IMG/VR virus record: IMGVR_UViG_3300045988_060114
Source of the DNA: a virus
Direction: 5' to 3' (one strand)
DNA length: 64,000 nucleotides
A program made the translations under genes and the position numbers. Below, piece after piece: positions 23,055-63,465 of the stretch (the stretch's first letter is position 1; the number at the start of each line of letters is the position of its first letter). The notes beneath the pieces are model-generated. The model did not search any database. It saw only the letters and a list, made by a program, of their open reading frames with translations, and was not told the DNA's origin.

Positions 23055-23097
23055 CAAAGGTACTAATTATTATTTATATTCGAGTTTTATCCGTTAA
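23055..23097 (-). promoter_or_regulatory. phage composite promoter P1: TTAACGGATAAA-N23-TACCTTTG
   Basis: Minus-strand 12-mer at 23086-23097 and -7 box at 23055-23062, with an exact 23-nt gap. Confidence 0.65.
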
Positions 23098-23120
23098 TAA
23101 TTGAATCAGAAGCACGAGTA

Positions 23121-23163
23121 TTAACGGATAAAATATGATTTTCGGCTAGTATTATTAACTTTG
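23121..23163 (+). promoter_or_regulatory. phage composite promoter P2: TTAACGGATAAA-N23-TAACTTTG
   Basis: 12-mer at 23121-23132 and -7 box at 23156-23163, with a 23-nt gap. The ATG at 23194 is 30 nt downstream. Confidence 0.65.
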
Positions 23164-23193
23164 CCACATTATTAATAATTAAAATACATATAT

Positions 23194-23862
23194 ATGTTAG
23201 GAGCGTTAATTGGGGCAGGTCTTGGACTTGCAAGCAGTATCGCTGGTGGTGTAGCTAACCGCAAGGCGAGACGTAAGCAGGAGCAGATGATAGCCCAGCA
23301 ACAGAAAGAAAATCAGGCATGGTATGATAGAAAGTATAATGAAGACCCTACCAAACGTGCCGATACCGTTCGATTGCTCACTCAAATGCAGGAGCAAATC
23401 AAGAACAGAAACAAGGCTGCGAAGGGTAGACAAGCGGTGATGGGTGGTACAGAAGACTCCACTACTGCTGTGAAGGAGGCGAACAACAAGACTCTTGCTG
23501 ATACCACCTCACAGATTGTAGCTGCAAATGATGCCCGAAAGGATAACATCGAGCAGCAGTATATGAACAGAAAGAACCAGTTACAGAACCAGCAGATGGG
23601 TATTGAAGCTGAGAAGGCTGCTGATACTGCCAATGCGGTTGCTGGTGTGGCTGGTACTGCTGCCAATATCGCTGCAACTATTGATAGTGGTGTTGGAGCA
23701 AAGAAGGCTCCGAACATGAATGTGACTCAGGAGCAGTTGGATGGTATCGCCAAGAATCCAAATGATGTTCTTGGCTTGAAGGCTAAAACTACTAGGTTGC
23801 CATCGCAAGGTGAACTGAATAGCCTTGGAGTGAAATTGCAAGAACAGAAAGTTAAAGCATAG
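23194..23862 (+). CDS. glycine-zipper / coiled-coil protein (222 aa)
   Basis: MLGALIGAGLGLASSIAGGVA N-terminus, then Q/K/A-rich sequence. Confidence 0.65.
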   Translation: MLGALIGAGLGLASSIAGGVANRKARRKQEQMIAQQQKENQAWYDRKYNEDPTKRADTVRLLTQMQEQIKNRNKAAKGRQAVMGGTEDSTTAVKEANNKTLADTTSQIVAANDARKDNIEQQYMNRKNQLQNQQMGIEAEKAADTANAVAGVAGTAANIAATIDSGVGAKKAPNMNVTQEQLDGIAKNPNDVLGLKAKTTRLPSQGELNSLGVKLQEQKVKA

Positions 23863-23865
23863 CCT

Positions 23866-25035
23866 ATGAAAGCATCAGATATGTTACGACACAATAATGG
23901 CTTGAAGACTACACAGAGTGTTCTCAACAAGCAGCAGAGTGGTGTGGATGCGGCACAGAAGGTGGCACAGACTCAGGCTCCAGTCTTCACCCAGCAGCAA
24001 CTTGATGCGGCTGGCAAGAAGGTTGACCAGATGAATGCTGCCACTCCTCAGAATGAAACACCTACGATGAAGGCGGCTAGAGAGAAGACTATCGCTACTC
24101 AACAAGCCATCGCCAATGGTGTAGATGTGAATCAGGGTGCGCCAAGTGATGAGGAGGATAAACCATCTGTACCTATCGTGAAGAAGGAGGAACCGAAACC
24201 TCAGCCCAAGCAGCTATCTTACGCTGATATGTATAAGATGCTGAATCCTGAGCATCAGGAGACGGCTGAGCAGAGGGCTAACAGAGAGAAGAAAGAACGT
24301 ACCAAGGCTCGTATCGCTGCCTTGGGTGATGGTCTCCGTGCGCTATCCAATATCTACTTCGCTACCAAAGGTGCAAAGGTGGTACACAATCCTGAGTCGG
24401 ATATGACTAAGGCGGTGAATAAACGCAAGGCATTTATGGATGAGCAGAGGGAAAAGAATCGGGCATCATGGCTGGCTGGGTATCAGAGGGCACTTGCTCT
24501 TGATGAGGAAGCGAGAAAGAATAACCTGACTCTAGCTGAGCAGATGAGGTATCACGATATGCAGAACGACCTCAACAAGGTGAAGGCTGAACAAGGGCAG
24601 CAGAGAATTGACCAAGGAAACAGAAGACTTGACTTGTCGAAAATGAAGTATGATACTGATGCTGATTACAAAAAGTCTATATTGGCTATCAAGAAGGCTC
24701 TGGCTGATGGGCAAATCTCTCATTGGCAAGCACAGGAGGCTATCCAGCGTATCAATGCTGAGACTGGTCGAACCCGTGCCAACAAGTCGGGTAGTAGCAG
24801 TTCAAGAAAGGGTTCTTACTCTGGAGAGGTTGATGAGTATATGGATTTGATGGAGAAAGACCCTGAGGGTATGGCTGAGGCTGCAAAGGAAGTAAAGAAA
24901 ATGGGCTACTCTCCTAAGACGGCAGCAGGAAAGAAGGCTCAGAAGATTGCTTATCAGCGTAAGCATGGTAAGACTAAACAGAACCATACATCATCCAACA
25001 ATGGTGGAAAGAAGAAGACTGGTGTAAACTGGTAA
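23866..25035 (+). CDS. Q/K-rich coiled-coil protein (389 aa)
   Basis: ORF with low-complexity charged sequence. Confidence 0.65.
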   Translation: MKASDMLRHNNGLKTTQSVLNKQQSGVDAAQKVAQTQAPVFTQQQLDAAGKKVDQMNAATPQNETPTMKAAREKTIATQQAIANGVDVNQGAPSDEEDKPSVPIVKKEEPKPQPKQLSYADMYKMLNPEHQETAEQRANREKKERTKARIAALGDGLRALSNIYFATKGAKVVHNPESDMTKAVNKRKAFMDEQREKNRASWLAGYQRALALDEEARKNNLTLAEQMRYHDMQNDLNKVKAEQGQQRIDQGNRRLDLSKMKYDTDADYKKSILAIKKALADGQISHWQAQEAIQRINAETGRTRANKSGSSSSRKGSYSGEVDEYMDLMEKDPEGMAEAAKEVKKMGYSPKTAAGKKAQKIAYQRKHGKTKQNHTSSNNGGKKKTGVNW

Positions 25036-25065
25036 CAGAATTGGTAACAAACAAATATATATATT

Positions 25066-28000
25066 ATGGCAGAAAGACCATTATACACTTTATACAAGAA
25101 TCTGAAAGCACAGAACTATGATGTGCCTGATGATTACAATAAGTTTGAGAGCGCCCTGACCAGAGAAGGAAAGGGCGGTGCAGATAACAGACACGCTATC
25201 TATGAGAACTTGAAGGCTCAGAACTTTGATGTTCCTGATACTTATGAGCGTTTCTATTCTGCACTTTTTGAACCTCGTAGTAAGACTTCATCTAGAGCGA
25301 AGGGCGGTAGTGTTCCTTTGAGTGCTGCTGACCGTGCTCGTTTCAATGCTAGAACTGCGGAAATCTTGTCTAGTGCTAATAATGCGGTAAGACAAGCAAA
25401 GCGAAACATTCAGACCAAACTGGGGCAAGCAAAGAAGTTTGATGGTGGCAGGGTTACTCAACGTCTAAAGAATCCTTTGCAGAATCAGAATGTACAGAAG
25501 AATGAGTTCAACTATAATGCCACAACTGGCAAGACTGGAACCTATACAACATCTGATGGAGTGGAGTTCGATAACGAGTATGATGCTACCCAGTATCAGA
25601 ATAAGTTGGACGAGCAGGGGCAGCAGTATATCAATGCTGTAAATGCTGGTGAGATACCGTCTGCTTTAGATGTGCGTGACCAGAATGGCAACTACGACTT
25701 GCAGGAGAATATTGGTAAGAATGGAACCTATCTCACTGAGGAGGGTGCTCAAAAGCAGTTTGATAAGAAACTGGCTGATGCCTATGCTCGCAAGAAGGAG
25801 ATAGAAGCTGCTATAGCGGAAGACAATCGTCAGCATGGCAATCCTCTGCTCTCTTATGGTGCTAGTATTGGTTCAAGTAACGGAAGAAATGCTGAGCAGA
25901 GTGACTATAGAAATAAGTTGGCAACCTCTCTATCTCTTGTTACTCAGCAGATTGGTGCGCTTGAAGCGGTGAAACAATACCCTACAAGTAGCTGGGGTGA
26001 GGATGCCTTGAAGGCTCTTGACAATACTGCCTTTACTGCCAAGACTTGGGATTTCGGTCTGACTGATTTTGCTACCATGGGGCAGATGGAACGTATCAAG
26101 ACAAAGATGGATAACAACATTCCTCTCTCTGGTTCTGATAAGATGCTCTTGAAGAGTAAACTGGGTGCGGATGCTGCTGCGGCTCTCGAAGATGAGAAGA
26201 TGGGTAATATCTATCGCTGGACGAAGATTGCAGGGCAGAGTCTCCCATTTATGGCTGACTTCTTCCTGACTGGTGGCTATGGTGGTATTACCAAGGGCAT
26301 CAGTCGTGGAGCCTTGAAGATTGCTGCTAAGTCTGGAATGGGCAAGGTGAGTGCTGCAATTTTGAAGAACACTGGTATCGTGGCTGGCGATGTAATCGGC
26401 TCGTATGCGATGGCTGGAACTGAACAGGCATTGAAGACTGGTGCAGACATCATGCAGCGACATCTAGGTAATCTGTATCAGGATGAGAAGGGCGATTATA
26501 AGTTCGGTACATTTGACGAAAACGGAAACCTCCTGCATGAAGGTGGTGAGTCTATGGGTACTGCTCTCTATAAGGGGCTGACCTCTGCCATGGTGGAGAA
26601 CTACACAGAGAAGTTGTTTGGTCACAACTATGGTATCAAGAAGGGTGCTGTCAACTTCATGGAGAAACATGGTATGAATGCTTCTGCTGAGTTCTTCAAG
26701 AATATCGGCAAGAGTGGTTGGTACACCAATTCTAAGAAGTGGATGGAGAAGTTTGGCATCAATGGTTTCGCTGAGGAAGTGATGGAGGAGGAAATTGGTA
26801 TTCCTCTTCATGCACTGCTGGATGGTGATAGTAAGGTGAGCGACCTTCTTGATGCTAGACAACAACTTGACATTATTGGTGGTATGGCTATCTCTGTTGG
26901 TTCTATGTATGCGATGGGTGCTGGCTCCCGACCAGTGAAGGGTGTGTACAATCGTGCTCAGTACTACCGATTCAGACACAAGTTGAACGTGGCTGATAGT
27001 GATGCACAGAACCTTATTGGCGATAACTGGGCAGACATCAAGGATAAGATTGACAATGCAACCAACGAGCAGATGGGTAGTGTACTAGCTGGCATTCTCC
27101 GTCAGAGAGATACAATGACCAAGGAACAGATTAATGCTGCTGTTAACTATGGTGTGAACCTGATGAAGATGCGTGGCTACAATATTGCCAAGACTTCTGA
27201 AATGAATGCAAGGGAGATTACCAATGAGCCTACAACTCCTGAGGAACAGCATCAAACGGATATTGATAACGCTTACTCTGAGGGGCATGATGCTGATGAT
27301 GCAGACAAACATGATATTCAGATTCAGCAGGAAGACCAGATGAAGACTCTTGCAGCAGCATTGGGTATCTCTGAGCAGCAGCTATCTGTTATGAGTGATG
27401 AGGAGTTGGAATCCTTAACTGGAAAGGATGATAAACTTGACCAAGCTATCTATGACTACCAGTTGTCTTCTGCTCGCTACCAAGGTGTGGTTGATGATGC
27501 ACAAGACAAGGTTGACCTTGCTGCTCATCAGGCAGAACAACGTGTTGATATGTACACAGACCAGAGCCGTGGCTCAGTCCGTAACGCTACCATTAAGGCA
27601 TCTGGAGGACTGGAAGACTATGGTGTCTATATTATCAGTGGCAATATCGCTACTCATGATGATGGTACTATTGATGTAAGCAATAGTGATGATATGATTC
27701 TCTATTATGACCCGACAACGAATAGTGTAGAACACGCTGATGCATTGATGTTCGCTGAACTGGGTGAGGAACTGCCTGCTGATGATGTGAAGGCTCAGGC
27801 GGTAGCTGATGCAAAAGAGGTTGCTATCAAAGAAGTGGCTGGCATCATTGACGGAACAGTTGATGTTGGCTCCCAGTTCTTGGTGACTGATGCTGACGGA
27901 ACGGAACATACTTATGAGGTGCTTGCTGATTATGGTGATGGTACTGCTGCTATTTCTATTGATGGTAATGTGGTAGAGAATCCATATTCGCTTGCCGATT

Positions 28001-31000
28001 TGCAACAGATGAAAGACTTGGAAGACAAGAAGAGATTGGAAACTGCTAAGGCTCAGCGTGAGCAGATAGAGAAGGAACGTGCTGAGCAGCAGAATCAGGA
28101 GACAGAACAGACTCAACCTTCATTTGATTTCAATCAGATTCTTAATGACAATGGAAATGTTGTCATTGTTGATGTGCTGGATAAGGATGGCAATACTAAA
28201 TATCCTGACTCTAGATTGTTCCTTATTCGTGATACTGGTGCCAAGGCTAAGGTAGTTGAGTTGAAGAGTGATGGCACTATTGTTCCTCATGCTGTGAGCA
28301 AGAAGAATGTGAGCATAATTACTTCAATGTCGCTTGATGAGTACAAGCAGGCTATGGCTGAATCCTCAATGATAGAGGATAATAGTGGAGAGAATAGAGG
28401 TGAGATAGAGGTGGAGACTCCGACAATAGAGGGCGAGACTGCTGCTCCTGCTGAGGAGACTGCTGCTCCTGAATCTGCTGAGACTCCTGCAACTGAACAG
28501 ACTCCTGCTGCTCCTTCCATTACTCTTGAAGATGGAACCATCGTGCCTATGCTGGAGGATGGCAATCCTGACTTCACGAAGCTGACTGCCGCACAGACTG
28601 CTGAGTTGTATGACTCCCAGTTTGGTGAGGATGCAGATAGTATCGTATCTGGATATGTGTCTGATGCAAAGAAGGCACTCGACAAGGCTAGCAACATGAC
28701 CGTGAAGGGTAAGACTTTCGTGGAACAGAAGGCTGCAAAGGATGCAAAGGAGAAGGCTATTGCTGATGCTCAGGCGGCTTATGACTCTGCTATCGCTATC
28801 CGTGATGCTTACAATGAGCGACAACTTGCCAAGGTGGAAGATACTGCTGAGGGTAGAAAGGAACTCATTGAGAAGGCAAGAAGAAAGTTTGCTCGCTTGA
28901 AGAGTGCAGTGAAGAATGATGCTGAGGCTGTAGCACAACTATATAAGGAGACTGTAGGCAGCTTGCTACATCGTCTGTATGATGGCACTGGCATTGACGT
29001 GACAGATACGATTCCGCTTACTGCTGAGGAGTATGTGGCTAGTAATCTCGGTGCTCACTCTCTCAACTATGAGGGTACTGAGACAAGCAAAGGTGTTAAG
29101 CAAGAGACTGGATTGAGTAGAGAAGACTTTGCCAAGACCCAGTTGCTCGCTGCTGATGGCAAGGGTACTACTATTGACAACCTCGTACATAGCTTGTGGG
29201 AGAATCGTCCATCTAACCTTGATTCACTCGACACTCAGAATATTCGCAATGCCTTGCTCAGCATAATCACTAGCGGTTTCAAGGCATCGGAAGCAAGAAA
29301 TTACATTGAAAATCTCCGTATCGCTCAGGCTGAGAATATCCTTGAAGAGCAGAAGAAGGCGGCTGATAACGCTGCATTCGCTGAGGAGAAGACTGGGGAA
29401 GAGAACTCTGATGAGGAGAATGATGAGGAGAATGAGAAGATAAATGAGCAGACAAATGAGAATATAAATGCTCCTGAGGTTCCTGAGGATGCAACGGATG
29501 ATACTCCTTTAGGCGCACAGCGTGATGAATCAGACCTTCCTTTCTCTGCTAAGGAGAATGGCAAGCAGCAGACAACTGCCGAGCGTGCTGCTGATGTAGA
29601 GAAGAATAAGGTGGATGATATGAAGGTCGTTGACAATATCGTGGGTGAAAAGACTCGAAAGGCTTTCGAGAGACTGGCTAAGATGATGGGTGCTGCCATT
29701 CAGTGGCAGTACTCTGACAAGTTGGGTAACGGCTGGATTCAGGAGACCAAGGATGCTGATGGCAACGTTCATCGTACCATCTTCATTACTCTTGACTCTT
29801 CTATCACGGAAGGTGCTCAGTTTATCTTCGGTCATGAAATGACTCACCAAATCAAGAATCTGAACCCTGCTGCATACAATGAGTTGACTCAGCTTGTGCT
29901 TGATACCTATGGCTCTGATGCCTTCGACAAGGCGGTAGGTGAGACCATGCAAAGATATTCTGATGCTGGATTCTCTGGACGTGCTAGAGATTACTATGCT
30001 GAGGAGGTTGTTGCTGATGCGGTAGGTGAAATGATTCGTGACCTCAACTTGGCTCATACTCTCGCTATGAAGATGTCTCATCCTCTACTCGCTGCTATCC
30101 ATGAGATATTGCAGAAGATTAAGTTGGCATTCTTTGGCACTGAGTATAGCGATGTGACCAAGAACATCATCCGCTCCATTGAACAAGCCTACGTGAAGAC
30201 TGCCAATGGGGAGGTGACAAACTCCGAGACTGGTGAAGATGTTTCCTTCTCTCTCCGTCAAAAGCCTGAACCTAAGAAGAAGGGCATCGGCTACAAGGTG
30301 TTCGTATTGAAGGATGGCAAACTCTATCCACCTATGGTAGCGAACCCTAATGGTGCTGCTACTCCAGTTGGTGTGTGGCTCGATGCTGATGCGGCTCCTA
30401 TTGCAGGAGAAAGCAAGACTGGAAGACCTCAGGTTAAGCAGGGCGGCAAGGGAACACAAGGCGGTAGCGGTAAGTTAGCCTATAGACCAGGCTGGCATCT
30501 TGGTGTAGTGCCTTATGCTATCCAGTTTAACCGCAAGGATGCTGAGGGCAACAAGACTCTCTTCCCTAAGAACTTTGTCTTCGCTGAGGTGGAGTATGCT
30601 GCTGACGTTGATTATCAGGAGGAAGCTCGCCAAGAGGGTATCAATCCATCGGGCAAGTATCAGCATTCACTCGCTGGCTTGAAACATCTGCCTACTGATG
30701 GTTTCTATATGTATCGTACAAACCCGAACCCTGAGACTGACCCTTGGGTGATTACTGGTGCGATGAAGGTGAACCGTATCTTGACCAGAGCAGAGCAAGC
30801 GGAACTTGTGAAGAATGCTGGTCGTGAACCTCAGCAGATTCAGGAGGGCGATATTGTTACTGATGATGTTGTGAACAGCATCAATCAGGAGATAGCTGAT
30901 GCTCCTAAGTTCTCGTTAAAGGTATATCATGGTAGCGGTGCTGACTTTACAGAGTTTGACTTCGACCACATGGGTGAGGGTGCTGGCTCCCAAGTATTCG

Positions 31001-34000
31001 GTTGGGGTGGCTACGTTACTTCATCGGAAGAGATAGGAAAAAGCTATGCTAATCTTTCAAGAGATTATGGCAGCAGAAACATATATAAGGGCGATATTCC
31101 GTTGACCAAGTTGGAAAAGGCTGCTTTGAGTTCATTCATTGAGAACAACAAGAATCATGAAGGGACATTCAAGGAAGGTGTTGCTGGTTCTATCGAGCGA
31201 CAAAAGGCATTGATTGCTAAGCATCCGAACAATCCTCTTTCTAATAGTATCAAGAAGAGAATTGAAGTATTGGAGGGTGCTATGCCTAAACTGGATAGTA
31301 TCTCTTGGGATGATTTCGTTCCAAGTGGAAAGAACCTCTATGAGGTAGATATTCCTGAGGATAATGGCAGTAACTATCTGGAATGGGAGAAGAAACCATC
31401 TGATGAGGTTGCAACAAAGATAATTGAAGGTCTTTATGGCTTGGATGCTAAGACCCTTGATGATATGGCATCAAAGGATATTGTGTTCAGAACTCTGTTG
31501 TATGATTACATCAAGAATGCAGACAAGGAGCAGATGATTCCACTCCTTGTGAAGACTCATGCTCTAACTAGGGAAACTACCTATGACAATGGAAATGTTG
31601 AGGATGATATACGATTTGTGTACAATCGTTTATCTAGATGGATGGGCAGTCAAAAGGCTGCAAGCCAGTTCCTATCTTCTCTTGGTTTTACTGGCATCAA
31701 GTACCCTGCTGGAACAATCATGGGCGGTGTTGAAGGAGACGAAATCAACTATGTTATCTTCAAACCTGAGGATATGAAGATTACAGAACATACCAAGTTC
31801 TCCATCAAGACCTATCATGGCTCCCAAGCATCATTTGACAAGTTCGACCACTCCTTTATGGGTAGCGGTGAAGGTGCTCAGGCTTACGGCTGGGGTACTT
31901 ATGTGAGCGAAGTGGAAGGTATCGCCAAGGCTTATGCCAAGGCAAATGCAAAAAAGAATGCGCCTTCAAGACTGATGTATCAAGGTAAGCCTATGACGTA
32001 TAAAACTCCATCAATTATCTATCAAGTTGCCCTTGATATGGATAAGTTTAATATTTCCGCAAAAGAGGCTATATCAAAGATGATAGATGCTGATGAGAAG
32101 AAACTTGCATCCGTTGGCGACACCCCATTTGCGAAGATGAAAGCCAAACAAGTTCAAGATGAGTTGAAAGTTTTGAAAGATTTGAATCCTTCTGACTTCA
32201 AGATTAATGAGGACTATGATACTGTCGCACAGGATTTGATAGATACAAAGTCTGGTCTTGATTTATTGGAGGATGAGTTGAAAGATGCAAAATCCTATGT
32301 AGATTTGTACCAATCAAGACTTGATGAGGCTAAGGAAGAACTTTCAAAGGCAAAGGAAAGTGGCACTGGTTTAGGTGTTGATATGTATGAATCTGATGTT
32401 GAGTATTATAGCGAACAGGTTAAAAGATATAAGCAGAGTATAAAAACTAAGGAAAGTGACATCAAAGATGTAAAAACTAAGGTTGACGCTTTGCAGAAGA
32501 AGTTGGATTCCATGGAGAAACCACGCAACCTCTACTCTGTTGATATTCCTGATGATACTGGTCGCAACTACATCGGCTGGGATGAGCCTTTAGGTGCTGC
32601 TAAGATTATGCGTCTGCCAAAGGTATTCAAGGCTGATGGCTGGGAGTACAAGAAGGTTGGTATGTATGATACTTACAAGATTGATGGTAACGAACATGAG
32701 GTTTGGCTTGAACCAACTTTGACTACTGGCAAGGAACTTTATAGAGATTTGACGAATGCCCTAGGTAGCGACAAGGCTGCAAGCGAATTTCTCTCCAAGG
32801 CTGGCTTTGTCGGTGTGAAGGTTATCGCTCAGCGTAATACTGGCGGCAACAAGGAAGGCAAGATGAACTATGTTATCTTTGATGAGAACAATGCTCAGAT
32901 TACCAGTCATACCAAGTTCTCGTTGAAGAAAGATGGCTTGACTCCTGAGATAGCAAATACTCCTGTAAATATTGTTGATGCTGATGAGGAACATGGCTTT
33001 AAGAACTATGCTGAGGCAAGAGAATGGGCTAAGAAGAATATTGTTAGAACTTACAATGATGAAGAAACTGGTGGCAAGGGTGAGATTAATATCAGTAATA
33101 CTGCTGTTGGTAAGTATTTGTCTGAAAAGGCAGTTAAGAAGAGTGCAAACAAAGATGTACACATGAGCGTTTTGAAGGTCTTGCCTTCTATACTTCGTGA
33201 GAGTGTAGATGCTATTCAGCATGTTGACCGTAACAAGGTAGGAAATGAACGTAGTGAGGATTTTGGTGTCAATCCTGATGTTATGATACATCGTTGTTAT
33301 GGTGCGGTGAATATAGGCGATAAGGTCTATGGTGTAAAGATTACTTTGAAAGAGAATGTAAGAACACACGAAAAAACAAAGCTATATAGCTATGAAGCAA
33401 CAAAAATAGAGCTGCTGGACGGTCAAAGTGGAGACGTAGCTATGACCTCTCCCCGCAATTCCAACAACTCTATTACGGTTGCAAAGATAATAAAAGGTTT
33501 TGAAACTACCAAGAAAAATGGCGAAAAGTTTTCATTGAAGGATGAAAAAACTCTTGCAGGAGTGCATAACATTACTGAGGAGAAACTGAGAAAGGCTTTG
33601 AAGCTGGGTGGATTTGCCAATCCTTCTTTGGCTGTGATTGATACCAACAAGACTGCTCACGACAACTTTGGAGAGATTTCCTTCATCGCTCCTTCTGCCC
33701 TTTTGGATAAGCGTACTGGCAATACTGGCGGTACTTGGATAACTGATGCCTACACTCAACGTTATCCTTCCGTAGAGCGAGAAATGAGTGAAAAAGGGTA
33801 TCGGAAGTTTGAAGACTGGGTTGATAGCCTTGATTACCCAAGTGTAGCTAAGGCTGAGATTGAGAGACAGGCAAAGGATGCCCTGAGCGACAATAATGCT
33901 CCTGCTTGGGAGTTGATGTACTTGAAGGAAAAGGGTATTGATATTAAGGAGTATGATTCTAGAATTGATTATCGCTGGAAAGAGATTATCAGTGACCATC

Positions 34001-37000
34001 CTACTGCTGAGGATATTCTGAATAGTATGAAGACTGACCCTGAACTGAATAAAAAGGTTACAAGTCTGGCTAAGCATGCCATCATCCATCCTACTTGGGA
34101 AAAGGTTTCTTTGGAGGTAAGAAGAAAGATGTATAAGGAGACTGGCGTTAAGGCTAGCCCTATCAATCCACAAGTAAGAAAACAGACTAAGGAAATCTTT
34201 GAGCGTGACTATGCGCCAACCTTGCTTAACAAGGACGGCAGTCCAAGAAAAAAAGATGTGAAGAAGGTTGTTGGGGATATTGTGAAGGAGCACAACGATA
34301 CCAAGAAGTATAACTTCTATCTGTCTAAGGTGAAGGCTAGTAATTACGTCAACAAGAATGGTCTTTATGATGATTACATCAGATGGCAGGAGAACAAACT
34401 GGATGAGTTCGGAACGAAGAACCGTATCTTCCGTGGCTATACTAAGGATGGTTCCCGAAAGTATGTGCCTGAGACTCTTGAAAATGTTTCAAAGGCTATG
34501 AGGGAAGAAGCAGATGGGCAGACCAATGGAAGTGAATATACCTCGTTTGGTAGCTTTATCGCAAAGTTGGCTAGTCGTGTTGATTCTACAGACGAAATGC
34601 GTGCCAACAAGGATAAGTTGTCTTCTAATAAGGATAAGGAAGAGTTTTACGAGAAATGGAATGGGGTTTATTATGACCTTGCCAAGTTCTTGTATAATGA
34701 TGTGTTTTATGGCGAGCAGAGACTTCACGATATTGTATTGCAGTCTGACCCTAAGAAGTATGCCAAGAAAGAATATGGCATTACCCTTACTCCTACCTTT
34801 ATGAAGAAACTGGATGCCTTGAAGAATGCAGTACAGACAGAGTTGAAGAGTGCGTACTTTGAGACTAAGTACAACAGACCTCTACGCCTTAATGAGTTTG
34901 CTGCTGCTGTGGTTCCTGATAACTTGGGCGAAGATGTGCGCAAGGGTATAGAGAATGCTGGCTTACCAATGTATGACTACGACCCGAATAAGGAAGGTGA
35001 CCGCAGTCGTGCCTTCAATGAAGCTATAAATAGCAGCGACAATATCCGATTCTCTCTTGCTGGCGAGCGTGGTGCGGCTGCTGCTGACAAGGCAGAGGAG
35101 CGTACTGCTCGTATGGATAATCTCTCTGTGGCTCGCAAGATGGAAGAGGAGAAGAAGGATGCCAAGGCAATCAAGATGGCTACTGGTTGGGAGCGTGGTG
35201 CTGATGGCAAGTGGAGATACGAAATGCCTGATGCCAAGATAAAGGACACGATGGACGTAGGCGGTGGGCACATCGTTAAGCGTTACGAGGATGATATGCT
35301 CTGGAATGGTGGTAAACTATCTAATGTGATTGATGCACCTGAATTATTTAAGGCTTATCCCCAGTTGAAAGATGTGCGTATTGATACGGATGCCATTATG
35401 AACGATATGCCTTCAAATGGTGAATATAATTCAAAGACCAACACCATTACCATTCATGCTGATGAGTTGAAATATATGAATGGCATATTGAATCACGAGA
35501 TTCAGCACGTTATTCAGGATATTGAAGGCTTTGCCAAGGGCGGTAGTCCTAGATTGGTTAGAGGTGAGGTCAAGAAGAGGTTTGATGAGGTCACCAAACA
35601 GATTAAGCAGCTACGTGCAGAAGGTAAGGAAGATGAAGCAAAGACTCTGATTGAGAAGAACAGAGGTCTTTATAATGCTTATCAGAAGAATGATGATTTC
35701 AATAGTTACAAGTCTCTTGCTGGCGAGGTGGAAGCTCGTAACGTATCTGCCCGATTGAACATGACTCCTGAGGAGAGAAGAAAGACTCTCGCTGAATCTA
35801 CTGAGGACGTGGCTCGTAAAGACCAGATTTTCTTGGGCGTGGGCGATGTGTCCTTCTCTCTACGTGATATGGCTGACGGAAAGGAGAGTGGGGCGGCTGA
35901 TATGGCTGAGGATTTGAAGAGTCTGAACACTCCTGATGAGGTGGATGATGCTATCAAGACTGCCATTGATGATATGCCGAGCGGTTGGCAGATGGCTAAC
36001 AAGAAGATGATTCATATTGCTCAGGCTCTGGGCGAGAACCGCAAGGCAGAGATTTCTGGCGAGGAACCTAAGTTCTCCCTGAAGGCTGGCACTCTCATTA
36101 AGGCTGGAACCTACTTTAGTGGTGGCGGTCTTGTTGAGGAAGGCTTGAAGGGTATCATCGACCCAGTGGTGGCAGTGGAGTATGACGAGAAGATAAGCGG
36201 TGTATATCGCAACAACTTCGGGCAGCACATTGTTACTGCTGATGTTCGTGATGTAGACCCTAAGGAGTTGGTGAAGCAGATAGATGGTGAGGTGGAGTAC
36301 TTCCATGCCAGCCCAGTCTGCAAGAACTACTCTCAGGCAAAGAGTAACCACGCAGAGGTGGAACTTGACAAGGAGACTGCTGCTAGTACTGCCGAGTTTA
36401 TCAATGCCGTTAAGCCAAAGGTGGTGACTATTGAGAACGTGAAGGGGTATAAGGATTCGGAAGCGATGAAGACTATTACCGATGCTCTGGATGCCAACGG
36501 CTATACTTGGGATGCAGATGTGTATAACGCTGCTGACTATGGCGGCTACACAAACCGAGAGAGATTGATTGTCCGTGCGGTTCGTGATGGCAAACTTCCT
36601 GCCAAGCCAAAGAAGATGGCACGCAAGAGTGGATGGTATGAAGCTGTGGCTGATATTATCCCGACCCTGACCGAGAAGAAGAATGGCGTGGCTCCTTGGA
36701 TGGATATTCGCTTGAAGGCTGATGGCATTGACTGGAGAAACATTGACAAGCCATTATATGTGATGGGTAGTGCCTATGCTGACGGAAAGATTCCTCATGC
36801 CTTCGCTGACGAACTGCTGCCAACACTCCGAACCAAGAGCGGTGATGTAATTGTGATGCCTGATGGTAAGGTATATCGTGCCATGGGCAGAGTGCTCGCT
36901 AGAGTATCAGGAGTGAGCGATGATTACAAGATGCCATTCTCCGAGAATCTGAGCCATACCATCATCGGCAACGGAATACCTACCCAGTTGACCGAGCATG

Positions 37001-46791: not shown

Positions 46792-46879
46792 ATTATAGAT
46801 AATTTAATTTTTGATGCAAATATACTGCAAATATTTTAATTTTCATACTTTATATTAAAATTTTAAATTAAATTAACCA

Positions 46880-46915: not shown

Positions 46916-46933
46916 CTTCTTTATCTATATGGT

Positions 46934-47131: not shown

Positions 47132-47171
47132 ATCTTGTTTCCTTTCTTTTTAATGTTAAACTTACAATATC

Positions 47172-51200: not shown

Positions 51201-51289
51201 TGGTCTCCATCAAGAAACACTTGCTTAGCAGAGGCAATCTTACCCTTCTTGGTTTTGGCTAGAAGCTCGTCTGTTAAATTTATACTCAT
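48206..51289 (-). CDS. large tail fibre/spike protein with a CotH-like C-terminal region
   Basis: N-terminal coiled coil. Five repeats of an E[FY].KAIVD..DK[VL]L.G...DG motif. AILNAQGNSSMSFVKKNVAIDF resembles the CotH RGNSS..F.KKS motif. Confidence 0.65.
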   Translation of the reverse strand: MSINLTDELLAKTKKGKIASAKQVFLDGDQENLQQIGEKTHQLEDAIKDITVSGGASTANAVSYNNETSGMTAITAQGAIDELAAKNKAQDAIIEAKAEKSEVATELDKKFDKDNIAHEFGDSKDKVVSQFSLPFREIESPEFIKAIVDAEDHFLLGIQLDGSIEWGKGIPAPIRAKLQEIINQCQQDKTDVLEAINAVKGELSASITALQEGKVDKEEGKSLIEDEVKECFRVIENEEFLKAIVDSNDKVLFGFYRESGEPYYPLNEMYHVIQNEEYFAAWLDTDDKVVLGLRRDGEIIGEIHAVNALKQVISQLQSDLASLQEKVGTIDTNLKELLDVFSLHENPEYLAVEKDADGRVLSATYNDGSHYIHNAKSETIPTEFEHIEDPEGRTEITTDGEDKVMSYRDADGKKHEHDMEITNLDVSNLNLQGNSVNNIQDALKANGFDVKTPIDWSESSFIQIPEPRFAIINVSNIDSMPTTKTQNKKAFLEFWDMQGNYFKKHAILNAQGNSSMSFVKKNVAIDFCDDEWVGDDTPKVRIGNWVPQDSFHMKAYYTDFFRGVCAVSYKLYDQIVRTRGNMYDRPWKKALLNMSKIGTTTKSLGNPYVGDYELLTDTGARCFPDGFPVAVYLNGEFYGIFSFQLKKHRDNYHMDKSTAEHVHLDGTINYNILWNGTIVWGTGDNGFEVRNPKNLYAIGGNKYDADIKQEEIAGEDEVNTWITAGQLPDGTAISSKIKKNLQITAKVKKYIQDFANTINIIKTAASTYESSSKTEEDLKAFKAVFEKYYDAENLIDYIIVSDLIKNADGFSKNWQWFTYDGVKWWVGIYDCDVSFGGHFKGNQITDVLSNHLSTSTYMPNGYIVKYYTTELNARYKYLADLGIASADNIFSHLQDWCMRIGTDFFKEEYKKWSDSPCIEDSIVRSEYWESVFDDSGNPQTDTSETFDAAHAYNVGDVVSFGLNEQMGYFKYKCIKATSALSANTPHTVSAYSPISEFKHCDNIYRVQKWIEQNTANMDKVYSYTRNN

Positions 51290-52471: not shown

Positions 52472-53386
52472 TTATTTTAATTTAGCGTTATATGTATACT
52501 CTCCTGCTTTCAACTCATCTGTCCAATAAAAGTATATGTCTCCTACCTTGGTGGAGTAGAGGGATGCGATGAGTCCTGACTGATAGAACTCTACTGGCAC
52601 ACGGCTGGCAAACCAGATGTATGGTTTTTCTTTGGTGGTGGTGATGGTTATAGACTTACCTACTATGTCACCAACTACCTTGGCAAGGTCTTCCATGTTG
52701 AACTGGCACATATTCTTGGCAGCGGTGGCTCCATAATAATAGATGTTATCATCGCCATTTGCCATGATGCTTACGTAGCCTGATACGGCTGGAATCTCTA
52801 TCTTGCCATCCTTGTAGGTTTCTCTTGTGATGTCGGTTCCGTCCATGACTACCTTCACCAAACCGAGATTGAAACCTTCGGCTGGAGTCAGCGTTGCTTC
52901 ATACTTCTCGCCCAGCTTCAATGTAGCAGGAGTAGAGGAGAGGGTAACATCATCCAATGAGTAGACAAAGGTGCAGTCAGACTGGTTTTTGGTGACCATA
53001 TAGTATCGAAGGTCGAACATTCCAACCGTCTCGCCTTGGAAGACTCCACAAGGAACCTTCACCCTATTGTTGGTCTCAATAATCTGCAAGATGTTTCGCT
53101 CCACACTCTTCATGGCATAACCATCGTAGTTCCATGATACGGCTACATTGTAGTTGCCGATGTCTAGGGTGGATGGGATATTGCACACCAGTACATTATG
53201 CTCTATGCCACCGATGGACGTGGGAACGATGATGGAATCATCGAAACAGCATTGCAGTTCCACCTTGATGTCGGACGCCTGAGTCATATCGAAGTCAACC
53301 AAGCGGTTGAACTCCTTAGACATATCCATCTTTCTGACCAAGATGTGGAGTTTGAAAGCGTTGCCTTGTACAATTTTATAAATCAT
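52472..53386 (-). CDS. structural protein, probably Ig-like/fibre-associated (304 aa)
   Basis: First ORF downstream of composite promoter P3. Beta-rich sequence. Confidence 0.6.
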   Translation of the reverse strand: MIYKIVQGNAFKLHILVRKMDMSKEFNRLVDFDMTQASDIKVELQCCFDDSIIVPTSIGGIEHNVLVCNIPSTLDIGNYNVAVSWNYDGYAMKSVERNILQIIETNNRVKVPCGVFQGETVGMFDLRYYMVTKNQSDCTFVYSLDDVTLSSTPATLKLGEKYEATLTPAEGFNLGLVKVVMDGTDITRETYKDGKIEIPAVSGYVSIMANGDDNIYYYGATAAKNMCQFNMEDLAKVVGDIVGKSITITTTKEKPYIWFASRVPVEFYQSGLIASLYSTKVGDIYFYWTDELKAGEYTYNAKLK

Positions 53387-53412: not shown

Positions 53413-53455
53413 CAAAGATAGACAGAATTTTCTCTACCTATCCTTTATCCGTTAA
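53413..53455 (-). promoter_or_regulatory. phage composite promoter P3: TTAACGGATAAA-N23-TATCTTTG
   Basis: Minus-strand 12-mer at 53444-53455 and -7 box at 53413-53420, with a 23-nt gap. Confidence 0.65.
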
Positions 53456-53779: not shown

Positions 53780-53803
53780 AATGGTAATTATTAATTATTG
53801 ATA

Positions 53804-56886: not shown

Positions 56887-56929
56887 TTAACGGATAAAGT
56901 AGAAATTAGCCGAAAAAGCATTAATTTTG
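56887..56929 (+). promoter_or_regulatory. phage composite promoter P4: TTAACGGATAAA-N23-TAATTTTG
   Basis: 12-mer at 56887-56898 and -7 box at 56922-56929, with a 23-nt gap. Confidence 0.65.
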
Positions 56930-57821: not shown

Positions 57822-59363
57822 ATGAAGAAAAGTAACAAATTTAATCGGCTGCTTTCTATCTTTATGATGGTTATGGCAGTTATTTTTGGAGTGAATGGTC
57901 AGGTTATCATGGCTGAGGCGGCTCTGCCTGATGGCGGTAGTACCGAGAGTGGTCACGCTGCGGAGGCTGGTGGTGCTACTGCTGCCGATGATGCTGGCAA
58001 TGGCGGTGCTGCTCGTCAGGATGATGGTATTGCTACCGAAACCAAGGGTCGTGAGCATTATAACGAGAATGGCACGGAGTTCTATGAGAACGACATCAAC
58101 GATAAGATTACCAAGATTCGTCCGATGGCTACGCCAGTTGACCAGATTTCACGCTATGCTACAACTAAGTCTGCTGGCTCGTTTGTAGTTGAGTATTGGA
58201 GTATTGGTACACGTCCTATCAAGACTACCGTCAAGGAGACTACATTGGAAAGTACTGGTACATCTATGGTATTGAAGGTAGAAGACCCTGAAATGTTTAC
58301 GCTGGATGATACCATCCGAGTGGTAGGTGTTAAGGCGATTACCAACTACAAGAATCAGGCTTATGCAGACCTTACCGATGAACCTACTCCTGATTTGGAA
58401 CTTTGTGTGTGCGGTAAGGATAATGAGGGTTATCCTATTGTGTTTGCGGTAAATGGCAAATTGGTTAAGAAGCAGCCTATTGGTATTCCAGCCTTACAGA
58501 AGGGTCAGAAACTTATCCGTATGGCTAAGAGTTGCGGTGAGTTGGACGTACAGACGGGTCGTTTCAACAACCTTCCTGATTCTGATGTTCAGTACTGCCA
58601 GAACTTCATGATTCAGGTTGAGGAGAGCACCTTCAATAAGATTGCTGCTAAGCGAGTAGATTGGGACTTCTCTGACATCGAGGAGGATAGTATCTACGAT
58701 ATGCGTCTTGCTATGGAGGGTACTTATCTCTTCGGTGATATGGCTTGTATCAAGCATACTACCAAAAACAACTCTACTCAGTGGTTTACAAAGGGTATCT
58801 GGTGGATGGCTGGTAAGGACATTGAGGTAGGTCATGTTGCTACTGCTGACGATATAAAGAAGGGCTATGGTAAGAATGAGCGAGTGATTACAGACTTGGA
58901 GTTGGTTGACATTTCCAAGGACTTGTTTGTTGGTACTGGTATCGGCAACAAGCGCAAGGTGATTATCGCTGGCTCTGCCTTTGTGAGTGCATTCAGTAAG
59001 ATTGACTCTGACAAGTTCCGCTTGAAGGACACCGTAGAGGTTTGGGACTTGAAGTTCAAGAGTTGGGAGACCGACTTCGGTGAGGTGCTGATGATTCACT
59101 CTGAGTTGTTTGACCTCTTCGATATGAGTGACTGCGGCTTTGCCCTTGACCCTGAGTTCTTGGTTAAGCGAGTACACTTGTCTTGGACACGTAACGTGCT
59201 CGACTTGAAGAAGGCTGGCATCCGTAACACCGATGCAGTAGTTATTCAGGAGGTAGCTTGTCTGTACTTGAAGTACCCTAAGGCACACGCTCGTATGCGC
59301 CTTGCTGCGGTTCCTGCAACAGAAAGTGCAACTGATACAGAAGAGACCAAGGCTGCTGCCTAA
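57822..59363 (+). CDS. putative major capsid protein (alternative start 57909)
   Basis: Large ORF between the scaffold-like gene and a strong terminator. The hydrophobic N-terminus of the long form is atypical. Confidence 0.55.
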   Translation: MKKSNKFNRLLSIFMMVMAVIFGVNGQVIMAEAALPDGGSTESGHAAEAGGATAADDAGNGGAARQDDGIATETKGREHYNENGTEFYENDINDKITKIRPMATPVDQISRYATTKSAGSFVVEYWSIGTRPIKTTVKETTLESTGTSMVLKVEDPEMFTLDDTIRVVGVKAITNYKNQAYADLTDEPTPDLELCVCGKDNEGYPIVFAVNGKLVKKQPIGIPALQKGQKLIRMAKSCGELDVQTGRFNNLPDSDVQYCQNFMIQVEESTFNKIAAKRVDWDFSDIEEDSIYDMRLAMEGTYLFGDMACIKHTTKNNSTQWFTKGIWWMAGKDIEVGHVATADDIKKGYGKNERVITDLELVDISKDLFVGTGIGNKRKVIIAGSAFVSAFSKIDSDKFRLKDTVEVWDLKFKSWETDFGEVLMIHSELFDLFDMSDCGFALDPEFLVKRVHLSWTRNVLDLKKAGIRNTDAVVIQEVACLYLKYPKAHARMRLAAVPATESATDTEETKAAA

Positions 59364-60523: not shown

Positions 60524-60526
60524 ATT

Positions 60527-62563
60527 ATGGCAAAGAAGAAAGAAGAAACAAAACTGCTATCGTTGAGCAGGGTGCTTGACAAGGAAGAACTGGATAGCGT
60601 GAAGGCATCCAAGAACCGATTTGACAAGCCATACGAGCGTGCCTTCTCTATCTTGCTGGAGGCTCAGCGATATTACAATAACATGGATAACTTCCGAAAG
60701 CGAAGACTGAGAAACAAGCGATATTGCTATGGAGACCAATGGGGAGATACCATTGAGTTCAAAAGCAAGTGTGGCTTTACTAAGCGTATCAGGGAGGAAG
60801 ACTATATCCGTGAGCAGGGTAGCGAACCATTGAAGAACAACCTTATCCGTAGGTTGGTGAAGAATGTGCTGGGTGTATATCGCTCTCAGAGCAAGGAGCC
60901 AACATGTAACGCAAGAGATAAGGATGAGAAGCGATATGGTGAGACCATGAGCGTGGTGCTGCAATGTAACCGACAACTGAACCGAGAGACGGAACTGGAT
61001 GCACGAACCATGGAAGAGTTCATGATAAGCGGTGCTGCTATCTATAAGAAGAAGTATGGATGGCGAAGAGGTAGGTTGGATTGCTGGACAGACTACGTGA
61101 ACCCGAACAATTTCTTCATAGACAACAATATGAGGGATTTCCGTGGTTGGGACGTGAGTTGTTTGGGTGAGGTGCATGATATTACCATTGGCAACGTACT
61201 GAGAGAGTTTGCCAAGTCTCCTGCTGAGGCTCGTAAGTTGAAGGAGATATACAGACTGGCAGCTAATAGAGATTTTGTGATTGCTGACTGCACTCAGCGA
61301 TTTGGTGAGTTCGACCCTAAGACTATCGACTTTATGAATCCTGCCAATCCTTCGCTCTGCCGAGTGATTGAGGTTTGGCGAAAGGAGAGTAAACCGAGAT
61401 ACCGATGCCATGATTACAACAATGGTGACGATTTCAAGATTGATATTGAGGATAAGGCTGATATTGTAGATGCAGAGAACAGAAACCGAATCAGGAGAGG
61501 TCTGGCTGCTGGCATGCTGGAAGAGGATATTCCTCTGATTGATGCCGAGTGGTTTATGGATGATTACTGGCATTTCTATTATCTTTCTCCTTTCGGTGAT
61601 ATTCTGAGAGAAGGCGAGACCCCTTATGCTCATGGTGAGCATCCATATTGTTTCAAGTTCTATCCATTCATTGATGGCGAGATTCACAGCTTCGTGGAAG
61701 ATGTGATAGACCAGCAGAGATACGTGAACCGACTTATTACGATGTATGACTTCATCATGCGTGCGAGTGCCAAGGGTGTGCTGCTCTGTCCTGAGGATTG
61801 TCTTCCTGATGATATGAGTTGGGATGATTTCTGCGATGAGTGGAGTAGATTTAATGGTGTGGTGAGATACAAGCCAAACAAGAGTGGTCAGGTTCCTCAG
61901 CAAGTTGCCAACAACTCTACGAATATCGGTATCGGTGACTTGCTCAGTTATCAGTTGAAGTTCTTCGAGGATATATCAGGAGTGAATGGTGCGCTGCAAG
62001 GGAAACAAGGAGTATCGGGTACGAGCGGTTCGCTCTATGCACAGCAGACACAGAATGCTACCATGTCGCTGCTTGATATTTTGGAGAGTTTCAGCCAGTT
62101 TATCATTGATGGTGCTTACAAGACCGTTAAGAATATGCAGCAGTACTATGATGTGGCTCGCAACTTCAATATTGTGGGTAGGGCAGGACAGATAGTGCGC
62201 TATGACCCTAAGAAGATTAGAGACGTGGAGTTTGACATCAACATCACGGAAAGTACGGCTACTCCTGTATACAGACAGATGGCAAATGAGTTCCTTATGA
62301 CCTTGTGGCAGAATCAGGCTATCACGCTGGAGCAGTTGCTGCAAGTAGGAGATTTCCCATTTGGAGAGGAGTTGCTGCAATCGGTTGCTTCCAACCAGCA
62401 AGCCATTCAGAATGGTGAGACTCCACAAGGATTCTCTCCTCAGCTTCAAGCCCAAGTGGCTCAGGCATCACAGAGCAATCCGAAGGCTCAGGCGATGTTG
62501 CAGCAGATGATGAGCGGTCAGGGAGTTAGTCCTGACGGACAGAATCCACCATTGGCGGCTTAG
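60527..62563 (+). CDS. putative portal protein (678 aa)
   Basis: Size, position in the head module and Q-rich C-terminal tail. No diagnostic motif recognised. Confidence 0.5.
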   Translation: MAKKKEETKLLSLSRVLDKEELDSVKASKNRFDKPYERAFSILLEAQRYYNNMDNFRKRRLRNKRYCYGDQWGDTIEFKSKCGFTKRIREEDYIREQGSEPLKNNLIRRLVKNVLGVYRSQSKEPTCNARDKDEKRYGETMSVVLQCNRQLNRETELDARTMEEFMISGAAIYKKKYGWRRGRLDCWTDYVNPNNFFIDNNMRDFRGWDVSCLGEVHDITIGNVLREFAKSPAEARKLKEIYRLAANRDFVIADCTQRFGEFDPKTIDFMNPANPSLCRVIEVWRKESKPRYRCHDYNNGDDFKIDIEDKADIVDAENRNRIRRGLAAGMLEEDIPLIDAEWFMDDYWHFYYLSPFGDILREGETPYAHGEHPYCFKFYPFIDGEIHSFVEDVIDQQRYVNRLITMYDFIMRASAKGVLLCPEDCLPDDMSWDDFCDEWSRFNGVVRYKPNKSGQVPQQVANNSTNIGIGDLLSYQLKFFEDISGVNGALQGKQGVSGTSGSLYAQQTQNATMSLLDILESFSQFIIDGAYKTVKNMQQYYDVARNFNIVGRAGQIVRYDPKKIRDVEFDINITESTATPVYRQMANEFLMTLWQNQAITLEQLLQVGDFPFGEELLQSVASNQQAIQNGETPQGFSPQLQAQVAQASQSNPKAQAMLQQMMSGQGVSPDGQNPPLAA

Positions 62564-62595
62564 TTTATAGTTTATAGTTAATAGTTTATAGTTAT
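62561..62595 (+). repeat. 5 x heptamer tandem repeat TAGTTTA (variants TAGTTAA, TAGTTAT)
   Basis: Spans from the portal stop codon to the ATG of the next ORF. Confidence 0.85.
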
Positions 62596-62815
62596 GATTG
62601 CAGACAAACCAAACGACAAGAAATGGTATGGCAATGGGAAACCTGATGCCAGCCAAAGTGGCAATGCCAGCAAGGGTATTGCTACGGAGACCCAAGGGAG
62701 GGAAGACAAGCCCGAACTTTACGAGAATGACGTTATCGGAAAGGTGGCGAAACGGAAGAAAAACGACATCTGGACGAGGGGTAGAGAGAAGAGAACCAGA
62801 TTTAAGGACGAATAA
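62594..62815 (+). CDS. small protein sharing peptide motifs with the capsid N-terminus and the scaffold C-terminus
   Basis: GIATETQGRE..LYENDV matches GIATETKGRE..FYENDI in 57822..59363. NDIWTRGREKRTR matches GNIWERGNEKRTR at the end of 56961..57776. Confidence 0.5.
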   Translation: MIADKPNDKKWYGNGKPDASQSGNASKGIATETQGREDKPELYENDVIGKVAKRKKNDIWTRGREKRTRFKDE

Positions 62816-62879
62816 AGAAAGGAGGTGTTTTTATCGTAACTGTATTTGTCTGATATTCAGATAGCTACAGAAATATCTG

Positions 62880-62918
62880 CGAGTTTATGGTGCTGCGTTT
62901 AAGATATTGGTATCTTTG
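62880..62918 (+). promoter_or_regulatory. second-class phage promoter: CGAGTTTAT-N22/23-TATCTTTG
   Basis: CGAGTTTA at 62880-62887 and the -7 box at 62911-62918, with a 23-nt gap. The ATG at 62948 is 29 nt downstream. Confidence 0.5.
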
Positions 62919-62947
62919 CAACATCATAAACTTTTAATTTTTATATT

Positions 62948-63433
62948 ATGGATTTTGTAGATTTCGTAGAAAAGTATCAGCAGGAGTTGACTCCTGAACA
63001 GATGTTGGCAGTAGCTAAGGCAGTCGGCAAGTATCTCTCATGCAAGTTGAGCGATGTGGAGGAGCATCATCTTTGTGCGATGGTGTATGGAGTGTTGAGT
63101 GAAGAACATTTCGACAAGCACTTTGCCGATGATGCTATCAACAAGATGTGGTATGAGGATGCTGACGGAACTAAGCACATGGCTCCCTTCTTCTCGGATG
63201 ATGAGATAAGAGAAGCCTTTGACAAGCATCAGGATGATATTTCTGATTACACCATTTATGACTTGGCGGTAACTATGAATCTGTTGAGGAGTGACCATCA
63301 TCTGCTGCTGGAGAGATTCAGTAAGGATGCAGATGAAATGAAGGAAATGGTGGTTCTGATGGCTATAGAGTATCTGCAAGACCCTGATTGCTTGCATCCG
63401 ACAAGCAAAATATGGCATACTATTAACGGATAA
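62948..63433 (+). CDS. hypothetical acidic protein (161 aa)
   Basis: ORF. Its last codons overlap the P5 12-mer. Confidence 0.55.
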   Translation: MDFVDFVEKYQQELTPEQMLAVAKAVGKYLSCKLSDVEEHHLCAMVYGVLSEEHFDKHFADDAINKMWYEDADGTKHMAPFFSDDEIREAFDKHQDDISDYTIYDLAVTMNLLRSDHHLLLERFSKDADEMKEMVVLMAIEYLQDPDCLHPTSKIWHTING

Positions 63434-63465
63434 AGTGACTATTTGGGAATCATTTCTTATCTTTG
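63423..63465 (+). promoter_or_regulatory. phage composite promoter P5: TTAACGGATAAA-N23-TATCTTTG (lysis genes)
   Basis: 12-mer at 63423-63434 and -7 box at 63458-63465, with a 23-nt gap. The ATG at 63496 is 30 nt downstream. Confidence 0.65.

Follow-up and report, generated by a model that had tools for sequence, protein, structure and literature searches.

A conserved 12-mer at a fixed distance from the -7 element marks a putative late-promoter class in a group of gut Bacteroidota phages

Results

The stretch of DNA analyzed here (IMG/VR virus record IMGVR_UViG_3300045988_060114; 64 kb, hereafter the window) covers the greater part of the genome of a temperate, podovirus-like gut phage of Prevotella/Bacteroides, with approximately 3.5 kb missing between the two window ends. 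The subject of this work is a 12-nucleotide (nt) word, TTAACGGATAAA (the box), that recurs upstream of the structural and lysis operons of this phage. Genes for lysogeny and early functions include a tyrosine integrase (18882–20135), a Rha/KilAC anti-repressor, and cI-like and cro-like genes that surround a pair of canonical promoters, while a leftward early operon of about 15 kb carries genes for recombination, replication, a methylase and nucleotide metabolism. The structural genes encode a P22-like portal, the major capsid protein, a T7 gp14-like internal virion protein, a giant protein and tail fibers.

An initial annotation, made from the sequence alone, had listed five exact copies of the box, and their coordinates, strands and sequences were all confirmed; dinucleotide-preserving shuffles of the window gave an expectation of 0.01 copies. 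Also borne out at all five was the claim that each copy lies exactly 23 nt upstream of a TAnnTTTG sequence and is oriented with its downstream operon. The tally itself was one short: a scan of the window for the combined 12-mer-N23-TAnnTTTG architecture, allowing up to three mismatches, returned the five exact sites and a sixth with a single mismatch (0.09 expected). This site, P0, reads TTAACAGATAAA-N23-TATATTTG at 1378–1420 on the minus strand and likewise points toward its downstream operon. TAnnTTTG is the definition of the -7 element of Bacteroidota promoters and TAHHTTTG is its strict form (PMC6847099). All six sites conform to the latter (TATATTTG, TACCTTTG, TAACTTTG, TATCTTTG, TAATTTTG and again TATCTTTG, in the order P0 to P5). 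A TTTG located 17–21 nt 5' of the -7 box was found at none of the six, P5 having one at 12 nt upstream of its -7 box. In an alignment of the six regions, only the box and an A/G-T in front of it, the -7 element and some A/T flanks were common to all, and the 23-nt spacers were mutually unrelated.

The upstream box of P0 (TTAACAGATAAA; 1409–1420, minus strand) lies within the last codons of the upstream early-operon gene, and its -7 box (TATATTTG; 1378–1385, minus) is 4 nt ahead of the ATG of gene B (930–1373), which is followed in the P0 operon by a large structural protein running past the left window end. A near copy of the box, TTAATAGATAAA, was observed at 1347–1358 on the minus strand, approximately 20 nt 3' of the P0 -7 box and within the first codons of gene B; it is kept in the clade and may be an autoregulatory site or reflect coding constraint. 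P1 (box at 23086–23097 and -7 box TACCTTTG at 23055–23062, both minus) heads a small conserved gene at 22723–23031. Divergent from it, P2 (box at 23121–23132 and -7 box TAACTTTG at 23156–23163, both plus) heads the internal-virion/giant-protein operon, in which the T7 gp14-like internal virion protein (23194–23862) and a 389-amino-acid (aa) protein (23866–25035) are followed by a single open reading frame (ORF) of 5431 aa (25066–41361) and further plus-strand genes. Relatives of this giant protein are found in BKO1-TP3 (where it is annotated as DarB-like antirestriction), BS-TP4 and BF1-TP2, at lengths of 3600–5550 aa, and it is probably an ejected protein. The 15-nt inverted repeat that had been noted between P1 and P2 is present and amounts to two oppositely oriented sites; the divergent promoters of BKO1-TP3 are arranged face to face instead, and each keeps its own N23.

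P3 (box at 53444–53455 and -7 box TATCTTTG at 53413–53420, both minus) heads gene 52472–53386, a tail fiber gene (51310–52470) and gene 48206–51289. P4 (box at 56887–56898 and -7 box TAATTTTG at 56922–56929, both plus) heads a scaffold-like gene with a probable ATG at 56961, and its operon also contains the major capsid protein (57822–59363) and the P22-like portal (60527–62563). The box of P5 (63423–63434, plus) overlaps the end of gene 62948–63433, and its -7 box (TATCTTTG; 63458–63465, plus) heads a small membrane-type protein (63496–63759) that is probably the start of a lysis cassette, as in relatives; the lysis genes of BS-TP4 are preceded by a site equivalent to P5.

The early and lysogeny promoters carry ordinary TTTG -33 elements, as had been claimed. 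Canonical TTTG-N20-TAnnTTTG promoters were localized at 16390 on the minus strand (early) and 20553 on the plus strand, and a TTTG-N22 version at 5524–5561. In the 5' part of the cI-like repressor gene, at 16490–16515, two adjacent inverted copies of the box with two mismatches each were observed (TTAGAGGATAAA / TTAACGGAAATA); the pair may be a coincidence, as about five chance matches are expected in the window at two mismatches.

A megablast search with the structural region against GenBank phages gave no match; therefore, relatives were searched at the protein level. As judged by the capsid protein, the nearest isolated relatives are the Bacteroides phages BKO1-TP3 and BS-TP4 (59% identical) and BF1-TP2 (46%), and two culturable pairs are available in BKO1-TP3 on Bacteroides koreensis and BS-TP4 on B. 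salyersiae. The paper describing these three phages does not discuss their promoters. IMG/VR holds 499 capsid relatives and the window's clade is very common there; the clade is also present as prophages in Prevotella metagenome-assembled genomes (MAGs), and one homologue is recorded from Prevotella hominis.

The relatives used for counting conservation were picked by protein homology and not by motif. All 80 loci selected by the capsid protein carried TTAACGGATAA[A/G]-N23-TAnnTTTG upstream of the scaffold gene, and two quite different spacer sequences occurred among them. When 58 distinct orthologous P4 sequences were aligned, the box was invariant and most spacer columns were variable. A further 80 loci, selected by gene B and reaching far more distant phages, always contained a box-like word, which was at N23 in 79 of them and at N22 in one. 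The box in these loci differs by clade: the window's clade has TTAAC[GA]GATAA[AT], that of BKO1-TP3 and BS-TP4 has TAAAAAGTTAAA, and a third clade has TTAAAAGATAAA (compare TTAACGGATAAA with GTAAAAAGATAAA). It is the 5' half that varies (TTAAC[GA], TAAAAA and TTAAAA), while G[AT]TAAA is kept. An Alistipes MAG and a second MAG of uncertain classification have GTAAAATGATAAA and GAGAAAGTTAAA at N23, with TAAAAT and GAGAAA as the 5' halves. In BKO1-TP3 and BS-TP4, GTAAA[AT]AG[AT]TAAA-N23-TAnnTT[TC]G stands ahead of the orthologous scaffold/capsid, giant-protein, portal and gene B operons. The family-wide rule is that a word with the 3' half G(A/T)TAAA ends exactly 23 nt before TAHHTTTG, and that its 5' half is lineage-specific. 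Comparison with related phages was proposed in the initial annotation as a check on its claim, and the motif was found at the corresponding positions with N23 and orientation kept while the spacer drifts.

An exact scan of IMG/VR returned more than 113 stretches with the architecture, comprising 50 distinct spacers. Every one of the 84 distinct copies of the 12-mer in the relatives' DNA has a -7 box at N23. An ORF begins no more than 70 nt downstream at 69 of 70 distinct box sites (mostly at 17–36 nt), as compared with 179 of 473 (38%) other -7 boxes in the same DNA; these data and the conservation support the earlier proposal of a phage-specific promoter class for late/structural genes. An exact scan of 596 Gb from 185,579 species genomes identified 17 loci in related prophages, mostly in Prevotella MAGs and also in Phocaeicola, Muribaculaceae and an unclassified bacterium, together with 55 singletons in unrelated taxa, which is about the chance level for 18 specified bases. 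Since the scan gave only related prophages and chance-level singletons, the box is a feature of the phages and not a motif of a host regulon. The relatives also carry a further type of box promoter, whose spacer reads GTTTCCGTTTGCC... and is followed by CACCAAAATAGTTAAG..ATGGC (22 distinct sequences); nothing in the window corresponds to it, and therefore the regulon differs between close relatives.

To place the box relative to transcription, use was made of P0 (1371–1385, minus), where exactly 4 nt separate the -7 box from the ATG of gene B in 80 of 80 loci from all clades. In Flavobacterium johnsoniae, the -7 element extends from T-12 to G-5 and the start site lies 4–5 nt beyond it (PMC6847099). 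Because of the constant 4-nt gap and the published numbering, we infer that the mRNA of gene B, the first gene of the P0 operon, is leaderless, with +1 being the A of the ATG. From this predicted +1 the 12-mer would span -47 to -36 with its center at -41.5, which, on this predicted numbering, would be the classical position of a class II activator. A -33 TTTG would occupy -36 to -33. The box had earlier been described as taking the place of the host -33 element; this description was close, the box abutting that position from upstream rather than occupying it.

A second shared sequence, the perfect palindrome ATTATTAATAAT, was present in three copies in the window (0.37 expected at up to one mismatch). 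The copies are at P2 (23168–23179; approximately +1 to +12), P3 (53398–53409; approximately -1 to +11) and P5 (63469–63480; approximately -1 to +11), beginning 3–4 nt past the -7 boxes, where transcription is predicted to start, and they are kept at the same promoters in relatives; a near copy is located at 53787–53798. A second regulator may use this palindrome as its operator, or the late mRNAs may share it as a conserved 5' end.

Few small non-enzymatic proteins are common to the window and the BKO1-TP3 clade, and two of them, A and B, flank P0 in every clade. Candidate A (1669–1965, minus strand) is a basic protein of 98 aa and the last conserved gene of the ~15-kb leftward early operon. 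It is homologous to gp31 of BKO1-TP3 (hhalign probability 91%, E = 1e-6) and lies directly upstream of P0 in relatives without gene C, a gene that intervenes in the window. Candidate B (930–1373, minus strand) is the 147-aa product of the first gene of the P0 operon and is kept wherever the box system is found. Its structural model (pLDDT 77, pTM 0.73) displayed two beta-hairpin/helix repeats, and in BFVD it matched uncharacterized phage proteins only. A comparison of B with the AbrB-like gp33 of BKO1-TP3 by hhalign was negative, and sequence searches of the PDB with A and B returned nothing. The early operon adjoins P0 too closely for a terminator to fit in, and B would therefore be produced by read-through before the late switch.

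Other ideas were considered and set aside. Gene C (1394–1669, minus strand), located exactly at P0 between A and the promoter, encodes a 91-aa zinc-ribbon protein (GQRFGRL...CxCDCG...SCGC) that shows a match to part of a PHROG with the annotation HNH endonuclease. Gene C is confined to the clade with the CGG-type box, in some members of which it occurs between A and P0 in two sequence versions while being absent from others. An 8-kb locus of a Prevotella prophage (L347) keeps the same box and has no gene C between A and B; gene C is therefore dispensable for the box and was ruled out as the factor. The product of the P1 gene (22723–23031), which is conserved in relatives, cannot start the cascade as the primary activator, since the sole promoter that drives it within the window is a box promoter. 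Lastly, the idea of a DnaA box, raised by the resemblance of TTATCCGTT, the reverse complement, to TTATCCACA and by the annotation of DnaA-like proteins in relatives, was abandoned as no DnaA C-terminal domain was found in the window.

Discussion

The box is, on this comparative evidence, a real, conserved and phage-specific upstream element of what appears to be a class of late promoters in gut Bacteroidota phages that form a very abundant group. Our interpretation, to which we assign a probability of roughly 0.6, is that the 12-mer is the binding site of a phage-encoded transcription activator of the late genes. We infer from the patterns described above activation rather than repression, and a late timing of expression. 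According to this model, the activator would bind the oriented 12-mer ending exactly 23 bp upstream of the host-type TAHHTTTG, so that the protein and the -7 box would lie on approximately one helical face. At -47 to -36 the bound protein would be able to contact either the alpha subunit or region 4 of the primary sigma factor of the host, thereby bringing host RNA polymerase to promoters with a good -7 box and no -33 TTTG, which would be class II-type activation. The six box promoters would thus drive the virion, ejection-protein, tail-fiber and lysis operons, with the early and lysogeny promoters relying on ordinary -33/-7 pairs. Most probably, the factor is a product of the long early operon that reads leftward; the distal end of this operon leads straight into P0, the presumed first late promoter, and such a layout would give a built-in delay. 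The leading candidates for the factor would be A and B, which flank P0.

Several observations weigh against this interpretation. The terminase operon has no box, and in relatives an ordinary TTTG-N20-TATCTTTG promoter is found there. BF1-TP2, the most distant relative examined, has box-like words without the N23 architecture; an attempt to fit it to the rule gave words similar to CATAACGATAAA in the right intergenic regions, at 25-nt or other spacings and with no consistent box, and was given up. The absence of the -33 TTTG is only modest evidence for dependence on an activator because the -33 element is weak in Bacteroidota promoters generally (PMC6847099). The difference in the box between clades coincides with the host genus (Prevotella versus Bacteroides), and a host-encoded factor is therefore possible. 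Pfam scans of the window's ORFs detected no member of the sigma, Mor/C, Ogr, RinA/ArpU or MotA families among those scanned. The AlphaFold model of A (pLDDT 81) gave no Foldseek match at E<0.1 and displayed no recognizable DNA-binding fold, while the solved structures with the highest TM scores to B, plant B3 DNA-binding pseudobarrels, were below significance (TM 0.33–0.48, E 0.25–0.7). Literature searches on this phage family turned up no data on transcripts, binding or reporters.

Among the alternative explanations, one that we regard as unlikely is that the box is read by a re-programmed polymerase, through a sigma-like or sigma-appropriating phage factor (as in T4 MotA/AsiA or gp55/gp33) or a phage subunit that changes specificity. 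The strict orientation and the rigid distance to the -7 box, which is N23 in 79 of 80 loci, are as in bipartite promoter elements, the -33 TTTG is missing at the box promoters, and a classical activator family was not found in the ORFs scanned. However, the -7 box is of the unmodified host type, and the 23–29 bp between the conserved words exceed any known contact distance between sigma regions 4 and 2. Moreover, the predicted center of the box is -41.5 and not -30, and neither sigma, MotA nor AsiA proteins were found in the window ORFs scanned or annotated in the complete genomes of BKO1-TP3 and BS-TP4.

It is also improbable, in our judgment, that the box is an operator at -47 to -36 through which a phage or prophage repressor silences constitutive promoters of the structural operons in the lysogen or during early infection. 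Little beyond a -7 box is needed for Bacteroidota promoters to function (PMC6847099), such that an activator may be dispensable here, and three of the box promoters carry an operator-like palindrome over the start site. On the other hand, a non-palindromic, oriented site at a fixed helical position 5' of the core promoter typifies activation and not steric repression. An invariant 23-bp spacing would not be needed for repression, yet it is kept in clades whose proteins are 35–59% identical.

We consider a host protein as the reader of the box, by an UP-element-like contact of the alpha subunit or as an exploited host transcription factor, to be an improbable explanation as well. On this account the sequence of the box would follow the host genus, and the two main box types do match different host genera, Prevotella and Bacteroides. 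The A-rich version found in the Bacteroides phages (TAAAAAGAT, -47 to -39) resembles the proximal UP subsite of Escherichia coli, which is said, in work by Estrem et al. from 1999, to be AAAAAARNR at -46 to -38. The box of the Prevotella phages, by contrast, has an invariant CGG and is conserved base for base, unlike the A-tract contacts of the alpha subunit; the architecture occurs outside related prophages only as chance-level singletons among the 185,579 species genomes, and the early promoters of the same phage have no box. Finally, it is very improbable that the repeats are a functionless by-product of the duplication or gene conversion of a promoter cassette, for although the downstream ATTATTAATAAT shared by three promoters could suggest copied modules, the 23-nt spacers are unrelated within the genome while the box is identical, the box is invariant amid variable spacers across the 58 distinct orthologous P4 sequences, and between clades its 5' half has diverged with its position kept. 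None of these alternatives explains as well as a phage-encoded activator the combination of strict orientation, rigid spacing across deep divergence and base-for-base conservation that includes G/C positions.

A comparison with known promoter systems brings the proposed activator into sharper focus. In the initial annotation an analogy was drawn to the MotA boxes of T4 middle promoters, in which a phage-specific word replaces the upstream core element while a host-type downstream element is kept. The box resembles them in this respect. The MotA box is, however, centered at -30 and requires AsiA to remodel sigma region 4. The predicted center of the box described here lies some 11 bp upstream of that position, and neither a MotA nor an AsiA homologue turned up among the window ORFs scanned. 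Because this predicted center is at about -41.5, Mu Mor/C or class II activation is the closer analogy. Mor and C are each made from the preceding temporal class and bind at a site centered near -43.5. The promoters they activate resemble those of the window in having an acceptable downstream core element, no -35-type element and a site just upstream that abuts the position of the latter, as well as in the recurrence of one word at several late operons. The differences are that Mor/C sites are imperfect dyads bound by dimers while the box appears asymmetric and behaves as oriented, and that the host polymerase here is of the Bacteroidota type with a -7 element. When the box was examined for dyad symmetry, TTAAC-G-GATAA was found to pair at four of five positions in the window's clade, and only the outer TTA/TAA pair in the other clades; a Mor/C-family domain was not detected in the Pfam scans. 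At class II promoters, such as those of CRP/FNR class II and of lambda cI at PRM, the center at -41.5 (predicted here), the abutment on the position of sigma region 4 and the rigid spacing are all similar, but the known activators are symmetric dimers on palindromes of 16–22 bp, and no such protein was found here.

The late promoters of phages P2/P4 (Ogr, Delta, Pag) are also alike in that one conserved upstream word serves a handful of late operons, with a small phage zinc-finger protein as the activator. The Ogr site is TGT-N12-ACA and is centered near -55. This dyad was not found upstream of the box sites, and the only zinc-ribbon protein beside P0 (1394–1669) is missing from one prophage in which the same box is kept. 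With respect to the ordinary Bacteroidota sigma-A promoter (-33 TTTG / -7 TAnnTTTG), the strict TAHHTTTG at six of six sites and the canonical early promoters of the phage are points of likeness; the difference lies in the 12-bp phage-specific word at -47 to -36, with no -33 TTTG. Promoters of phage or alternative sigma factors differ in that no sigma domains were found in the ORFs scanned and the downstream element is the host -7 box. The box is also set apart from UP elements by the invariant CGG in the window's clade, where it is identical at five sites and in 80 of 80 relatives.

More tentatively, a new family of activators that work with the unusual RNA polymerase of Bacteroidota on phage late genes may have the box as its target. 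It would be encoded by A or B, two genes whose products have no assigned fold and which are candidates of roughly equal and individually low probability. Were B the factor, it would bind DNA as a single chain with a pseudobarrel-like fold. Read-through from the early operon would supply it at first, and a leaderless transcript of its own, dependent on the box, would do so afterwards, which would constitute a late switch with positive feedback. Co-evolution of the 5' half of the box with the protein would then have produced orthogonal specificities in the phages of Prevotella, Bacteroides and Alistipes.

That late promoters of phages carry conserved activator boxes is a well-known principle, and the present case is a new instance of it in a new host phylum. 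Literature searches found no late-promoter element described for these phages, and searches for the 12-mer word itself gave nothing but unrelated matches to primers. Within the literature searched, the novelty lies in the element, in the rule that positions it on a promoter of the -7 type and in the lack of any known activator family. The box would define a late regulon of six operons in this phage and can be recognized in hundreds of gut phage genomes and prophages, where transcription units and their probable start sites can be located with its help; for the switch protein, it reduces the field to two small conserved genes. Should the factor be identified, variants of the box could serve as orthogonal, phage-inducible promoters for the engineering of Bacteroidota, whose promoter grammar is unlike that of E. 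coli.

Other features of the phage and its relatives

The gene at 21837–22328, in the rightward operon that begins at the canonical promoter at 20553, encodes a protein of 163 aa in which a Tad2-like domain (Thoeris anti-defence 2; E = 1e-17) was recognized. The end of the fiber operon (45736–48182), with a low GC content of 34–36%, encodes an HTH_3 + P63C-domain protein and a leucine-rich-repeat protein; this segment is absent from the Bacteroides relatives and looks like an acquired accessory module. A tRNA-Met (CAT) gene was localized to 14542–14619 on the minus strand, in the early region between excisionase-like and recombination genes and not at a prophage end.

Two observations concern the isolated relatives. 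The record of BF1-TP2 (1–380, 68070–68180) starts with a run of more than 70 C residues, which looks like an assembly or library artefact, and has 27-nt tandem repeats at both ends. In BS-TP4, short direct repeats (TTCCGAAGAAA and related sequences) occur in up to nine copies at 63031–63431, near the integrase end.

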